From a phage, in sequence record PZ019084.1: 64,000 nucleotides of DNA; one strand, written 5' to 3'. The notes beneath the pieces were generated by a model. The model was not told the origin of the DNA and did not search any database. It saw only the letters and a program-made list of their open reading frames with translations. Both the position numbers and the translations under genes were made by a program. Shown in pieces: positions 1,801-5,821 of this stretch (the stretch's first letter is position 1; every line of letters starts with the position of its first letter).

Positions 1801-2517
1801 ATGAATTATAAACTAATTTATGAAAAGTTAATCTCTAATGCTAAATCTCGAAAACTTGATTGCTATACTGAATCTCATCACATTATACCACGCTGTTTAA
1901 ATGGTAGCGATGACGCTTCAAACTTAGTAGATTTAACACCAGAAGAGCACTATGTAGCTCATCAACTTTTAGTAAAAATTTATCCTTCTGAACCAAAATT
2001 AGTCTATGCTGCTAACATGATGACAGTTTCTACGAAATACGCTAAACGTAACAATAAAACTTTCGGCTGGATTCGTCGTAAACTCTGGGAAATAGAAAAG
2101 AATAAAGAGTTCTCCCAAGAGACACGAAAGAAAATGTCCGACGCAGTAGCTAATAAAGCAAGACTAACTTGTCCACATTGCGGTAAGTCTGGATTAAGCG
2201 GGAATATGAATCGATGGCATTTTGATAACTGCCCAAATCACCCCAATCCTAAAGTTAGACCGCCAATGTCTAAAGAACACAGAAATAATATCTCAAACGG
2301 GCTTAAAGCAATCGTTCTTGAAGAAACATCATGCGAATTCTGCGGAATGATAGGCAAGAAATGCGTTATCGCAGCGCATAGAAATTTCTGCAAGAAAAAT
2401 CCAAATGGACGCAAGAAAACTGAAAAGACTGGTACTTGCGTCCATTGTGGTAAAGTTACCACGTTCGGAAATTTATCAAGATGGCATAATGATAATTGTA
2501 AATATAAACCTAGCTAA
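1801..2517 (+). mobile_element. Free-standing HNH homing endonuclease gene with C-terminal Cys/His zinc-finger repeats
   Basis: 238 aa; HNH motif ESHHIIPRCLNGSDDASNLVDLTPEEH; repeats CPHCGKSG...RWHFDNC and CVHCGKVT...RWHNDNC; only plus-strand gene in a minus-strand block; TATAAATA at 1760-1767. Confidence 0.8.
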
Positions 2518-4198
2518 TCTTAGCTAAACTAAATCTACCAACTTTTTCCATTTGAATGTGCTGACCATATTCCTGTGGGTCATGGTCTTTATGCGAAATT
2601 ATGAAGAAGTTGGTATCCTTCAAACCATCTAAAATTTTAGCCACATTTTTAATACCTTCAGCATCAAATGCACCGTCATACACTTCATCAAGAAATAAAC
2701 AACTTATTTTAACACCTGAAACTTTTTCAGCAATATCACGCCAAGTAAATAAAAGAGCAATATCAATTCGTGCTTTTTCACCTTGACTAAATGAAGCATA
2801 ACTAAAATCTTCACGACCACGGGATTTAATTGTCTCATTAAATTCTTCATCTAATGTAAACACATAATCCGCTTCCATTATTTTAAGATAATGATTAATC
2901 TGCTTATTAAATAATGGAATGTACTTTTTAATAATAGCACCTTTAATACCAGAATCTTTGAGCATATCAGTCAAAATTCCTCTATGGTATTTTTCCATTA
3001 CTAAATTAGTTTTTGTCTTAACAATTTTATCAAGTTCTTCTTGAAGCAGTGCTATTTCATCAGCATGGTCAATAAACTCAGATGATGCTTTTTCTATAGC
3101 TGCTTTAACTTTTTTAGCTTTATCTACAGTCGTGATTAGAGATTGCTTTTTATTGCGAATATCATTCGCCAACGTCTGCTGGGTTTTAATATTATCTCGG
3201 TATTCATCAACGAGAACTTTTAAATTATCACGATGTGTTGAAAGCTGTTCAAACGAATGCGTGCATTCAGAAACTTTATCTTTAATTTTAGAAACAACTT
3301 TATCACCGGAACTTAATTGTGACAAACAGGTTGGACATAATCCACCTTCGTGATACATATTAATGACTTTATTATACGAGTCAATTTTTGATTTAATTAA
3401 AAATGCTTCTTGACCGATTTTATTAAATGCATCAGTCGGGTCTTCATCCAAAACAATATTAACTAATCTTTCATTAGCTTCTTCTATTTCCGATTTTAGC
3501 GTTCTAGCTTCTTTTGCCAAATCATCATACATATTCTGCAGACGAGTAAGGTTATCACCGGTTAATTTTTTCTGACGTTCAACGTTATCATTATATATTT
3601 TAATTTGTTGGATAATACTATCTTTTTTAACATCAAGCACTTGGTTTTGTGAATTTAATTCACGTATTAGTGCTTTATTAAGCTTATCCATTTCAGCTAA
3701 TGTTCCTACCTCGAGTAGGTCTTCGACAAGCTTTCTTCTTGCAGGAGTGGATAAGCCCATAAAAGGGGTATATCCAGCCGTGCCGAGTACGACGATCTGT
3801 TTGAAACTGGCGTATGACATTCCGATAAGCTGTTCAAATTCTGCTTGGAAATCTTTACTGCTGGCAGATTCATTAAGACGTGTACCGTTAACGGTGATTT
3901 CGAAAACGTTTGGTTTTTGTCCTCTTTTGATATAGTACTTTTTCTCATCATATTCCATCCACAGTTCAACTAAAAGTTCTTTCTTATTTGTACTGTTTAT
4001 TAATTGGCCTTTCTTTACATCACGAAATGGCTTGCCAAAAAGCCCAAATGTGATGGCTTCTAACATAGTAGACTTACCACCGCCATTTCGCCCAGTAATA
4101 AGAGTTTTTTGAACCTTATCTAGTTGAATGTCAATAGGATTTCCACCTACTGACATTATATTTTGATACCTAACTCGGTTTAGTTTAAAATTCTTCAC
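2510..4198 (-). CDS. 46: Recombination endonuclease subunit gp46 (Rad50/SbcC-like ATPase)
   Basis: 562 aa; Walker A GRNGGGKST near N-terminus, long coiled-coil middle, Cys motif CPTC, C-terminal Walker B region LFLDEV; size matches T4 gp46. Confidence 0.9.
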   Translation of the reverse strand: MKNFKLNRVRYQNIMSVGGNPIDIQLDKVQKTLITGRNGGGKSTMLEAITFGLFGKPFRDVKKGQLINSTNKKELLVELWMEYDEKKYYIKRGQKPNVFEITVNGTRLNESASSKDFQAEFEQLIGMSYASFKQIVVLGTAGYTPFMGLSTPARRKLVEDLLEVGTLAEMDKLNKALIRELNSQNQVLDVKKDSIIQQIKIYNDNVERQKKLTGDNLTRLQNMYDDLAKEARTLKSEIEEANERLVNIVLDEDPTDAFNKIGQEAFLIKSKIDSYNKVINMYHEGGLCPTCLSQLSSGDKVVSKIKDKVSECTHSFEQLSTHRDNLKVLVDEYRDNIKTQQTLANDIRNKKQSLITTVDKAKKVKAAIEKASSEFIDHADEIALLQEELDKIVKTKTNLVMEKYHRGILTDMLKDSGIKGAIIKKYIPLFNKQINHYLKIMEADYVFTLDEEFNETIKSRGREDFSYASFSQGEKARIDIALLFTWRDIAEKVSGVKISCLFLDEVYDGAFDAEGIKNVAKILDGLKDTNFFIISHKDHDPQEYGQHIQMEKVGRFSLAKIS

Positions 4199-4458
4199 AA
4201 AAGATTCCTTTTAATGTATCTTTTAGACCATTCTATCATATCATCATAATCTAAAAAGTATTCATCAAATTCAGCCATGCAAACAACACCTTGTGCTGCT
4301 TTTGATGTAATATAAATTATTCCAACATATCTAGAATCTTCTTCGGTGTAATCAATATTTGCTATGAATTCATCGTTAATGTCAAATGTCGAAAACTTCA
4401 CAGTATGCATCCTTAATACAAGATACAGCCATATCTTGTAATGATTTAGGTGTGTCAT
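4195..4458 (-). CDS. Small acidic protein; true start probably the internal ATG at 4410
   Basis: Stop overlaps gene 46 start (ATGA coupling). The longest-ORF start overlaps the upstream ORF by 77 nt, so the internal Met (MHTVKFSTFD...) is more likely. Confidence 0.35.
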   Translation of the reverse strand: MTHLNHYKIWLYLVLRMHTVKFSTFDINDEFIANIDYTEEDSRYVGIIYITSKAAQGVVCMAEFDEYFLDYDDMIEWSKRYIKRNLL

Positions 4459-4645
4459 TATCTAAAATGTTGAAGTTAAAAGATACAGCCCAGTCAGTGC
4501 AGACCGTGACCTTTTTAATACAATTATCTTCAACCTCTAGCGGTTCAAACCAATATTCAATAATTTCTTTATGCCCAATATCATCTTTTACTTCGCATTC
4601 AAAATGCTGACTCATCATAACATTTTTAAATTCATCAAAAGTCAT
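4382..4645 (-). CDS. Small acidic protein between genes 47 and 46
   Basis: 87 aa; start ATG overlaps gene 47 stop (ATGA), suggesting translational coupling. Confidence 0.4.
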   Translation of the reverse strand: MTFDEFKNVMMSQHFECEVKDDIGHKEIIEYWFEPLEVEDNCIKKVTVCTDWAVSFNFNILDNDTPKSLQDMAVSCIKDAYCEVFDI

Positions 4646-5661
4646 TGTGTTGCCTCTACATATAACTGATTTGCATATTGAATAAGTGCTTCGCGGTCAG
4701 AATCAGTGATGTCTGGAATTGTATTAATGTATTCTTCCATCAACGTCTGAAGAGATTGAACTTCAACTTCTTCACTATCATCTGACTCGATAGAGTTATC
4801 AATCTTTGACACAACTCGTAATGAATGCACAACTTTTTCTAGTTCAGATTCGAACTTCGTTAGATTTTTGTCTACCTCAGTTACTATAACACGTACTGAT
4901 AGATTTGTAAAATCTTTATAGTCAATTTTTCCCTTAAATGGATACTGAATTCGACGGTGCCAAGTAGTGTTGTTTGGAATAAATTCCATTCGTTCTGTTT
5001 CTGTATCAAACATCCAGAACCCGCGAGGGTCATTCTCGTCACCTGCAGTTAGTGTCCATGGTGTCCCAATATATCTGACGTTAGCAGCCTCAGAGATAGT
5101 ATGGAAGTGACCAGACCACACCTCTTTATAAGTCTTAAGGAAATCAGGTTCAAGACCGTGAGATTTCATTCCTTTATAAAAATAAAATCCATTCAGTTCC
5201 CAGTGACCAACACAAAAAGAAGCAGATGAAGTTTTGATGTGTTCAAGAATTTCACCAGTATTTTCTTCGCACATCCAAGGAATTAAATCAATCAAACATC
5301 CGTCAAAATCTACTGTAGTAGGCTTATCATATACTTTAACATTAGGATATTTAGCCAAAAGCTCAGTAGAAGCATTTGGAGTTAAAGTATTTTTAAAGTG
5401 CATATCATGGTTTCCTACAACAGTATGTAGGGTAATACCAGCATCATCAAGCATTTGAACTATTTCACGAGCGAACTCCATAGTTTTATGCGTGATTGCT
5501 TTTCGCACATCAAAAATATCGCCGTATTGAATCCATGTAGTAATTCCGTTTTTCTTAGAATATTCTATTGCTTGTTTAATTCCATCCAACTGAATGGATT
5601 GAACCCACTCATCATCGGCTTTAACACCTAAATGCCAATCACCTAAATTTAAAATTTTCAT
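4642..5661 (-). CDS. 47: Recombination endonuclease subunit gp47 (Mre11/SbcD-like phosphoesterase)
   Basis: 339 aa; calcineurin-like phosphoesterase motifs (MKILNLGDWHLG, GDIFD, GNHD, GH.H); same size as T4 gp47. Confidence 0.9.
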   Translation of the reverse strand: MKILNLGDWHLGVKADDEWVQSIQLDGIKQAIEYSKKNGITTWIQYGDIFDVRKAITHKTMEFAREIVQMLDDAGITLHTVVGNHDMHFKNTLTPNASTELLAKYPNVKVYDKPTTVDFDGCLIDLIPWMCEENTGEILEHIKTSSASFCVGHWELNGFYFYKGMKSHGLEPDFLKTYKEVWSGHFHTISEAANVRYIGTPWTLTAGDENDPRGFWMFDTETERMEFIPNNTTWHRRIQYPFKGKIDYKDFTNLSVRVIVTEVDKNLTKFESELEKVVHSLRVVSKIDNSIESDDSEEVEVQSLQTLMEEYINTIPDITDSDREALIQYANQLYVEATQ

Positions 5662-5821
5662 ATATCAAGAACCGTCATTGAAATGCAAAATAAAATTATT
5701 GAAATAAATCCGTCCGGAGTGCTAAAGAACCCAATCCAACATGCTCTAGTGAATAGATAAAATGCGAGAAAAAGTATCACATATCCAAGAAATATCATTA
5801 TATCAAACTCCGTATAAAGCT

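Follow-up and report, generated by a model that had tools for sequence, protein, structure and literature searches.

Do the two small overlapping open reading frames between genes 47 and 46 of this phage represent two genes, or a single gene split by a frameshift? An earlier note, made from the letters of this DNA, had offered both readings. The window, meaning the whole 64,000-nucleotide stretch of record PZ019084.1 that we analyzed, is a T4-type (Tequatrovirus) genome and shares 94.8–99.7% DNA identity with T4-type phages that annotate genes 46.2 and 46.1 at the same positions. All genes and sites described below are on the minus strand.

The 47-46 interval holds T4 genes 46.2 and 46.1

Gene 47 (4642..5661, with its TGA stop at 4644..4642) encodes the Mre11/SbcD-like nuclease subunit, a protein of 339 aa that matches Pfam Metallophos and is gp47 in T4 and its relatives. 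Gene 46 (2510..4198) encodes the Rad50/SbcC-like ATPase subunit (562 aa; Pfam SMC_N and AAA_23) and begins with a GTG codon at 4198..4196, the same position as in the T4 annotation. As the earlier note had described, the ORF list shows the interval 4195..4645 filled by two ORFs that overlap in different frames, the downstream one lying in the +1 frame of the upstream one. These "two small genes" of the note are T4 genes 46.2 and 46.1. Gene 46.2 (4382..4645) runs from an ATG at 4645..4643 to a TGA at 4384..4382 and encodes 87 aa, while gene 46.1 (4195..4401) runs from a GTG at 4401..4399 to a TGA at 4197..4195 and encodes 68 aa. The acidity ascribed to both products holds, with a pI of 4.2 for each. 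We consider it very likely that the region consists of these T4 genes, present as independent genes for small acidic proteins inside the 47-to-46 (Mre11-to-Rad50) junction.

Judged by their sequences, the two frames are more than chance ORFs, and each has its own Pfam family and its own PHROG. The 46.2 product scores 147.8 bits against PF25721 (T4_Y03C), with residues 1-84 aligned to profile positions 1-84 of 85, and matches phrog_2192 with E = 1.4e-48. In its longest open form, the 46.1 product scores 162.7 bits against PF17589 (DUF5487), where profile positions 1-66 of 66 fall on residues 20-85; for both Pfam families the gathering cut-off is 27 bits. The match of 46.1 to phrog_2327 has an E-value of 7e-39 for the long form and 3.6e-39 for a 71-aa form. 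ORFs of at least 87 aa number 91 in the window and 6.3 in shuffled sequence.

Both genes have long been annotated in T4. T4 gp46.2 (Y03C_BPT4, UniProt P13330) has the same 87-aa length and is 98% identical to the product encoded here, from which it differs at two residues (E16K and Q70R) and in nothing structural; its gene lies at the corresponding position and, as here, overlaps gene 47 by ATGA and 46.1 by 20 nt. T4 gp46.1 (Y03B_BPT4, UniProt P32268) differs at one residue, A35T, and shares the GTG start, the 68-aa length, and the GTGA overlap with gene 46. When 1.84 billion proteins were searched for the wider family of 46.2, just 8 clusters (50% identity) were recovered. Seven of these are small proteins of 69-87 aa, and the eighth is a weak match to a protein of 1714 aa.

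Gene 46.1 starts at GTG 4401

With ATG 4458 as its first codon the second ORF has 87 aa and a 77-nt overlap, but this is only the greatest length over which the frame stays open. The evidence instead supports GTG 4401, giving the 68-aa protein and a 20-nt overlap with 46.2 (4382..4401), as annotated in T4. In alignments, this codon falls exactly where Mosigvirus and Dhakavirus have the ATG that starts 46.1, and residue 20 of the 87-aa form is where the Pfam and PHROG profiles for 46.1 begin. Six sites are polymorphic in the 57-nt extension (4402..4458): all six are non-synonymous when read as 46.1, and five are synonymous when read as 46.2. The profile boundaries, the aligned start codons, and the polymorphism patterns together led us to reject the 87-aa form.

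We also considered ATG 4410, which gives 71 aa and is used in some annotations. Here the AAGGA element directly abuts the start, and we rejected this codon as a by-product of conserved Asp-Ala codons of 46.2, although it may serve as a minor start of 46.1. Many automatic annotations call the 46.1 start differently, and some extend the gene to an upstream ATG to yield 87 or 71 aa.

The cistrons are chained by stop/start overlaps and embedded Shine-Dalgarno sites

The earlier note proposed that both ORFs are joined to the flanking genes by ATGA overlaps. This is correct for the 47/46.2 junction (4645..4642). Since the first codon of gene 46 is GTG, however, the 46.1/46 junction (4198..4195) reads GTGA; Mosig-, Dhaka-, Karam-, and Tegunavirus have ATGA there. 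With the 20-nt overlap between 46.2 and 46.1, every step from gene 47 to gene 46 has overlapping cistrons, and each start has a Shine-Dalgarno site inside the upstream ORF. For the 46.2 ATG this is a GAGG (4653..4656) among the final codons of gene 47, at a spacing of 7 nt. For the 46.1 GTG it is an AAGGA (4410..4414) within Lys-Asp-Ala codons of 46.2, at a spacing of 8 nt, and for the gene 46 GTG another AAGGA (4206..4210) among the final codons of 46.1, again 7 nt away.

These elements recur in related phages. The ATGA overlap with the gene 47 stop is present in every examined locus with a 46.2 homologue, and the same GAGG element serves gene 46 in phages that have no inserts. In most of the loci read, TTGAGGC is conserved ahead of whichever start comes first after gene 47; ZZ1, Slopekvirus, and Aeh1 differ there. 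In all genera (A/G)AGGATGC is conserved and is followed by the start of 46.1, or by that of gene 46 where 46.1 is absent. Phages with a homing-endonuclease insert have the 46.1 stop overlapping the endonuclease start instead.

From this layout we infer translational coupling along 47-46.2-46.1-46. A ribosome reaching the end of one cistron on the polycistronic early and middle mRNA would start the next, a hand-over that would favor co-production of the small proteins with gp47 and gp46. RNA structure at the three junctions was no more stable than in shuffled sequence (z = +1.74, -0.27, and -0.44), and a 10-bp hairpin at 4440..4417 lacks conservation even among T4-type phages. A scan for sigma-70 promoters and terminators returned hits at chance level. 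The T4 middle promoter P46 has its start site at T4 coordinate 35014 (table in PMC2988021). Moving this coordinate by the constant offset between T4 and the window places the putative promoter at 4228..4262, inside 46.1. The motif read from the sequence has a MotA box with its ACTT centre at 4259..4256 and a -10 element, TATGAT, at 4240..4235, with the start at approximately 4228.

Published T4 data on expression and dispensability

The earlier note suggested proteomics as a check on the two peptides, and published T4 mass spectrometry (MS) bears out one of them. Y03C (gp46.2) was quantified, rises with time, and is classed with gp47 as early RNA and middle protein, while gp46.1 had zero intensity in every sample. 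For ribosome profiling, also suggested, we found no T4 data set in the literature. A T4 transposon preprint reports insertions at 18 of 18 TA sites in 46.1 and at 23 of 24 in 46.2, compared with 2 of 149 in gene 46, which is essential (bioRxiv 10.1101/2025.11.20.689424). In that study, the transposon lacks a terminator and carries stops in all three frames, and the insertion counts in the two small genes are normal, making 46.2 and 46.1 non-essential in T4. Its essentiality table and one condition comparison give no phenotype for either gene, and the main text names neither.

Stop-bearing insertions are tolerated at 41 of 42 TA sites across 46.1 and 46.2 although gene 46 is essential, which argues against an obligatory coupling to gene 46. 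The term "translationally coupled" used in the earlier note thus stands as a description of the architecture, in which stop/start overlaps and embedded Shine-Dalgarno sites are conserved across genera, rather than of an obligatory dependency. Coupling would instead be facilitative, with a Shine-Dalgarno site of its own at every start, a gene 46 promoter inside 46.1, and chain-breaking insertions tolerated in T4. Combining the published proteomics with the transposon data in this way, to argue that gene 46 expression does not require the chain, is one use of the present analysis.

The 47-46 junction in related phages

We compared the junction across related phages, as the earlier note had proposed. 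The two-frame layout recurs, and each gene is also found alone. At the DNA level the layout is identical in 519 phage records, T4 strain records included, representing about 500 independent genomes. The 46.2 protein was found in 743 phage records, all of which (743/743) cover at least 80% of the query, and the 46.1 protein in 715, with 714 reaching that coverage. Both genes are present in Tequatro-, Mosig-, and some Dhakavirus; 46.2 occurs without 46.1 in Gaprivervirus and some Dhakavirus, the loci being VR25 and four Dhakavirus-like ones, and 46.1 without 46.2 in Karamvirus and Tegunavirus.

Other Straboviridae have neither gene. In Jiaodavirus and Gualtarvirus gene 47 is joined directly to gene 46 by GTGA, and in Aeh1 by TAATG. 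These phages share with the window the GAGG-containing end of gene 47 and the (A/G)TGA overlap logic; the window differs in having two extra cistrons threaded in, each of which re-creates the embedded Shine-Dalgarno site and the overlap. Phages that lack 46.2 and 46.1 join 47 to 46 directly by GTGA, and therefore the small genes are accessory cassettes added to an ancestrally coupled junction. Other genera (Acinetobacter, Slopekvirus, and Krischvirus phages) carry unrelated ORFs at this site, a phosphoesterase among them, and the small ORFs located there in ZZ1, Slopekvirus, and Krischvirus showed no relation to the 46.2 or 46.1 family. By these comparisons, the 47-46 junction of T4-like phages is a recurrent insertion site, with the look of a hot spot, and the cistrons added to it restore the chain of stops and starts. 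Each insertion kept the chain: a Shine-Dalgarno site sits among the final codons of the upstream ORF, whose stop either overlaps the next start or falls shortly after it.

Two protein-coding genes rather than one

The frameshift reading drew its appeal from two overlapping frames that jointly fill the whole 47-46 interval, as a single gene broken by a sequencing or assembly error in a homopolymer near 4380-4460 might do. No single uninterrupted ORF was present in 28 related loci inspected base by base. An artefact is also at odds with an identical layout in 519 records, with the near-complete recovery of each protein across its own set of records, with the occurrence of each gene alone in other genera, and with two families that show no sequence relation. 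We regard the artefact as refuted and give it essentially no credence. As a separate matter, paralogy of 46.2 and 46.1 was not supported by profile-profile comparison (hhalign probability 0.14%, E-value 0.41). A programmed +1 frameshift in T4-type phages, which would fuse 46.2 to 46.1, is a more specific idea and only marginally less improbable. At its stop, 46.2 reads ATT TGA C, which resembles the prfB site (AUU UGA C against CUU UGA C), 46.1 is in the +1 frame, and a +1 shift would read TTT GAC ATT, codons 6 onward of 46.1. However, the site lacks the features of a prfB-type shift, with no Shine-Dalgarno-like stimulator 3 nt upstream, and ATT TGA C is limited to T4-type phages, the corresponding context being GAC TGA T in Mosigvirus and GTA TAA A in Dhakavirus. 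Moreover, a conserved Shine-Dalgarno site and start codon belong to 46.1 itself, each half of the supposed fusion is found by itself, and T4 MS detected 46.2 with no 46.1 peptides.

With two genes in place, the remaining doubt concerns 46.1, whose sequence could be kept for the P46 promoter and the gene 46 ribosome-binding site without encoding a functional protein. The MotA-dependent promoter and the gene 46 Shine-Dalgarno site do lie within it, its product is absent from T4 MS, the gene is non-essential in T4, and it is missing from some Dhakavirus and all Gaprivervirus loci seen. We find this reading improbable, since promoter and Shine-Dalgarno site take up only the last ~70 nt of 46.1, while the ORF is intact in all but one of its records. 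The protein retains 27-41% identity across genera where the DNA has diverged to saturation, and dN/dS is below 1 (0.05-0.56, except for one pair with only 4 differences at 0.69). Polymorphisms show a third-position bias in the portion that does not overlap 46.2, and the predicted fold is confident (AlphaFold2 pLDDT 91.5). For 46.2, dN/dS is 0.06-0.30 and the pLDDT is 88.9. These substitution patterns indicate that both frames are under purifying selection, and we consider the pair settled as two genes, with 46.1 starting at its GTG.

Predicted folds and possible roles

As it stands the pair has little significance, as annotated T4 ORFs with their own Pfam families that are dispensable in the laboratory. 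No function for either gene was described in the literature searched. Sequence searches of the PDB gave nothing convincing (best E-values 0.25 and 0.098), and a BFVD fold search returned only family members as significant. PADLOC and NCBIfam models at E-values up to 1 gave no match, a weak test in that PADLOC models defence systems and not anti-defence proteins. The predicted models may resemble small phage-encoded inhibitors, namely phiKZ Dip (5ft0), AcrIF24 (7dtr), and T7 Gp1.2 (7u65), as well as, for gp46.2, the type III secretion chaperone / YbjN-like folds of ExsC (3kxy) and SycT (2bsj). Common to these proteins and to gp46.2 and gp46.1 would be small size, acidity, a four-stranded antiparallel sheet against a C-terminal helix, and the lack of catalytic motifs.

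The location of the genes raises the idea that one or both products belong to the gp47-gp46 (Mre11-Rad50) nuclease as dedicated subunits with a regulatory or adaptor role, made in a fixed ratio through the coupling chain. The small genes strictly keep their place between those of the two nuclease subunits, their stops and starts overlapping, gp46.2 is in the same T4 expression class as gp47, and both proteins are small and acidic with predicted folds of a protein-binding type. We think this unlikely. Each protein is missing from many phages that have closely related gp46 and gp47, the site holds unrelated ORFs elsewhere, including the phosphoesterase, as an insertion hot spot would, and the T4 Mre11-Rad50 complex has reportedly been reconstituted as active without either protein. 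In the T4 transposon data, both genes are non-essential with normal insertion counts, compared with an essential gene 46. Equally doubtful to us is a looser version, in which gp46.2, gp46.1, or both are lineage-specific partners of Mre11-Rad50, or else inhibit a nuclease or defence protein of the host that works on the same DNA ends, with coupling providing in-step production and the junction serving as a general docking site for modulators. We speculate, tentatively and with somewhat more confidence than for either of these ideas, that gp46.2 and gp46.1 could be compact sheet-plus-helix proteins without catalytic motifs that bind and modulate a host or phage protein in a role dispensable in the laboratory. 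Should modulation of the Mre11-Rad50 nuclease or of a host defence prove to be their role, the products would offer compact new tools.

Two small genes between genes 47 and 46

Around genes 47 and 46 the coding strand of the window is the minus strand. Gene 47 (4642..5661, 339 aa, Metallophos) and gene 46 (2510..4198, 562 aa, SMC_N/AAA_23, GTG start) flank two open frames on the same strand, at 4382..4645 and, in its long form, 4195..4458. The 651 bases around both frames had 80-99.7% identity to 519 phage records, almost all of them from Tequatrovirus (T4, T2, T6, the RB phages and numerous isolates), and T4 and its relatives annotate the frames as genes 46.2 and 46.1. The first matches Pfam family T4_Y03C (147.8 bits) and the second DUF5487 (162.7 bits; cut-off 27 bits for each), and they fall in two different PHROGs. 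Given this annotation and these profile matches, the finding is a re-discovery of two annotated T4 ORFs, and as a feature already known and annotated it is of low interest. The earlier note was right to propose two small genes here, as annotation, Pfam, PHROG and the discovery of each gene alone all indicate, and right to call both products acidic (pI 4.2 for gp46.2 and for gp46.1).

The same note allowed for one gene split by a frameshift, which comparison with other T-even 47-46 junctions refutes. In 28 loci, each read base by base, no single continuous ORF crosses the interval, and the two separate genes occur in varying combination: Tequatrovirus, Mosigvirus and some Dhakavirus carry both, Gaprivervirus VR25 and four Dhakavirus-like loci carry 46.2 only, and Karamvirus and Tegunavirus carry 46.1 only. 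A gene broken by sequencing artefact is refuted by these same loci. A programmed +1 frameshift at ATT TGA C would join the two products without any artefact, and 46.1 does lie in the +1 frame at the 46.2 stop, in a context similar to prfB. We nonetheless consider it extremely improbable: a stimulator is absent, the site is not kept beyond T4-type phages, the genes have independent starts, each half occurs alone, and 46.1 peptides were not found in the T4 proteome.

By tblastn, 743 phage records contain 46.2 and 715 contain 46.1; a single match falls short of 80% query coverage. Estimated by the Nei-Gojobori method, dN/dS ranges over 0.06-0.30 for 46.2 and 0.05-0.56 for 46.1 (one pair outside, at 0.69, has only four differences), values that are over-estimates for distant pairs because dS is saturated; judged from these ratios, purifying selection acts on both frames. 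Profile-profile comparison finds the two families unrelated (probability 0.14%). Both AlphaFold2 models are confident: that of gp46.2 has a helix, four strands and a long C-terminal helix (pLDDT 88.9), and that of gp46.1 has four strands followed by a C-terminal helix (pLDDT 91.5).

The 46.1 start and the stop/start chain

The mutual overlap described in the earlier note is present, but shorter than the 77 nt that result when the second ORF is taken, as there, from the earliest ATG in its frame (4458). The supported start is GTG 4401, from which 46.1 encodes 68 aa and overlaps 46.2 by 20 nt. ATG 4458 is disfavoured by the T4 annotation, where GTG 4401 is the 46.1 start; by the spacing of AAGGA, 8 nt upstream of this GTG; by the 46.1 ATG of Mosigvirus and Dhakavirus, which aligns exactly with GTG 4401; by the Pfam and PHROG profiles, which start at residue 20 of the long form; and by polymorphism. 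Across 11 T4-type sequences, six sites of the 57-nt extension (4402..4458) are polymorphic, five of them synonymous third positions in the 46.2 frame and all six non-synonymous in that of 46.1.

Shine-Dalgarno sites precede the 46.2 ATG (GAGG, 4656..4653, 7 nt), the 46.1 GTG (AAGGA, 4414..4410) and the gene 46 GTG (AAGGA, 4210..4206, 7 nt), all on the minus strand and each embedded in the preceding ORF. Of the ATGA overlaps claimed for both flanking junctions, that of 47/46.2 (4645..4642) stands, but 46.1/46 (4198..4195) reads GTGA, gene 46 starting with GTG here and in T4. In every genus the 46.1 Shine-Dalgarno falls in conserved Lys/Glu-Asp-Ala codons of 46.2; in phages without 46.1 the gene 46 start itself follows that site, and the closing 46.2 codons (DEDF-stop) overlap those for MKTFK in gene 46. 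The opening codons of 46.1 (MMKMYK, MMKTFEF, VKFSTF) resemble those of gene 46 (MKTFKL, VKNFKL), which suggests that a 46.1 cassette may have entered just past the gene 46 start and captured its initiation region.

In this window the 46.1 Shine-Dalgarno is closely preceded by a perfect 10-bp hairpin, UACAAGAUAU GGCU GUAUCUUGUA (4417-4440, minus strand). Fold predictions for T4 and other strains instead pair UGUAUCUU with the Shine-Dalgarno region AGGAUGCA, and Dhaka- and Gaprivervirus have a 5-bp GCAUC/GAUGC stem around the site. Every one of these stems falls within conserved codons.

In Jiaodavirus and Gualtarvirus, gene 47 is joined directly to 46 by GTGA, behind the same TTGAGGC element, and in Aeh1 by TAATG. 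Unrelated ORFs occupy the site in Acinetobacter phage ZZ1 (L030 2217-3100; 85-aa, hydrophobic 34-aa and 179-aa ORFs chained by 4-11-nt overlaps, the last a Metallophos_2-like phosphoesterase), a Slopekvirus (L032 2228-2515; a single ORF of 95 aa that shares 14 nt with gene 47 and 17 nt with gene 46) and a Krischvirus (L031 2281-2845; a gap after gene 47, then further small ORFs). The simplest reading is that direct coupling would be ancestral, that accessory cistrons were repeatedly inserted into it, and that the stop/start chain was rebuilt afterwards wherever junctions are readable.

Possible coupling of gene 46

The indirect evidence is mixed. The conservation of overlaps and embedded ribosome-binding sites between genera is an argument that the arrangement matters. 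Three results speak against strict dependence. Predicted folding at the three junctions is no more stable than that of shuffled sequence (z = +1.74, -0.27, -0.44). The mapped MotA-dependent middle promoter P46 starts inside 46.1, 30 nt before gene 46 (T4 35014; PMC2988021); by inference its start transfers to ~4228 (minus strand), with an unusual ACTT MotA box at 4259..4256. In a T4 transposon study (bioRxiv 10.1101/2025.11.20.689424), insertions hit 18/18 TA sites in 46.1 and 23/24 in 46.2, at read counts usual for non-essential genes, and were tolerated at 2/149 sites in gene 46. The transposon is described there as having no terminator and stops in all three frames at its ends, so a break in the chain upstream of gene 46 is compatible with growth. 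Taken together, translational coupling here would be facilitative at most.

An A/G polymorphism among T4-type phages at 4259 (minus strand) changes the MotA box centre from ACTT (window, T4) to consensus GCTT (L016 and L025, two relatives' loci) and also gp46.1 Tyr48 to Cys, placing one base under promoter and coding constraint. Upstream, gene 47.1 (5658-5798, minus strand; 46 aa), which T4 annotation lists as a predicted membrane protein, shares 4 nt with the start of gene 47. Middle promoter P47, mapped at T4 36576, transfers to ~5790, only 8 nt inside 47.1, and its transcripts are therefore unable to encode full-length gp47.1.

Expression and function

The proteomics check suggested earlier gave a divided answer in the time-resolved T4 proteome (PMC9697503, supplementary tables): Y03C (gp46.2) was quantified, rising through infection, with the same class as gp47 (early RNA, middle protein), but Y03B (gp46.1; RNA class early) had zero intensity in all samples. 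Thus 46.2 is a proven protein, and the case for 46.1 as a protein gene rests on conservation and a confident predicted fold.

Sequence searches for solved-structure relatives returned none convincing (best E-values 0.25 and 0.098), NCBIfam and PADLOC profiles gave no match to either gene, and a BFVD fold search found family members only, one from Edwardsiella phage PEi26. When 1.84 billion proteins are clustered at 50% identity, just 8 clusters belong to the 46.2 family. Each of the possible fold look-alikes (phiKZ Dip, AcrIF24, T7 Gp1.2, ExsC, SycT) is a small binder or inhibitor, but their topology is very common, so that the pair may bind and modulate another protein is a guess, and a tentative one. 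That they are dedicated Mre11-Rad50 partners, as their position between genes 47 and 46 might suggest, is unlikely; their patchy distribution and the unrelated ORFs at this site in other genera lead us to favour hitch-hiking accessory genes. It is possible but quite unlikely that 46.1 is a regulatory relic, holding P46 and the ribosome-binding site of gene 46, as it is conserved at the protein level across genera.

Homing endonucleases and mosaics

In PP01 (L003 2053-2922), T2, NRG-P0074 (L010 1648-2517) and others, a 284-aa homing endonuclease sits exactly at the gene 46 start, corresponding to window ~4198, and takes over the GTGA overlap with 46.1. Its ORF opens with GTG and the first six codons of T4-type gene 46 (VKNFKL), followed by 19 nt identical to 46.1 codons 6-12 (TTGACATTAATGATGAATT, DINDEF) and equally far from the start codon; the gene 46 behind it begins ATGAAATCA (MKSFKL), as in Mosigvirus. 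NRG-P0074 46.2 (L010 1201-1464) is a mosaic with a Mosigvirus-type N-half and a T4-type C-half, the 46.1 homologue P0036 likewise joins a Mosigvirus N-half to a T4-type C-half, and in L025 (1501-1957) a 46.2 of Gaprivervirus type stands beside a 46.1 of T4 type. The mosaics look like recombination or co-conversion tracts beside the homing-endonuclease site. At the other end, a 238-aa ORF (1801-2517, plus strand) with a weak HNH motif converges on gene 46, sharing 8 nt with the 3′ end of that gene. Annotations of other phages call it a homing endonuclease, and its presence in only 60 phage records marks it as a mobile insert that most T4-type genomes lack. Counting the 284-aa insert as well, each end of gene 46 is a site for homing endonucleases, though in different phages.
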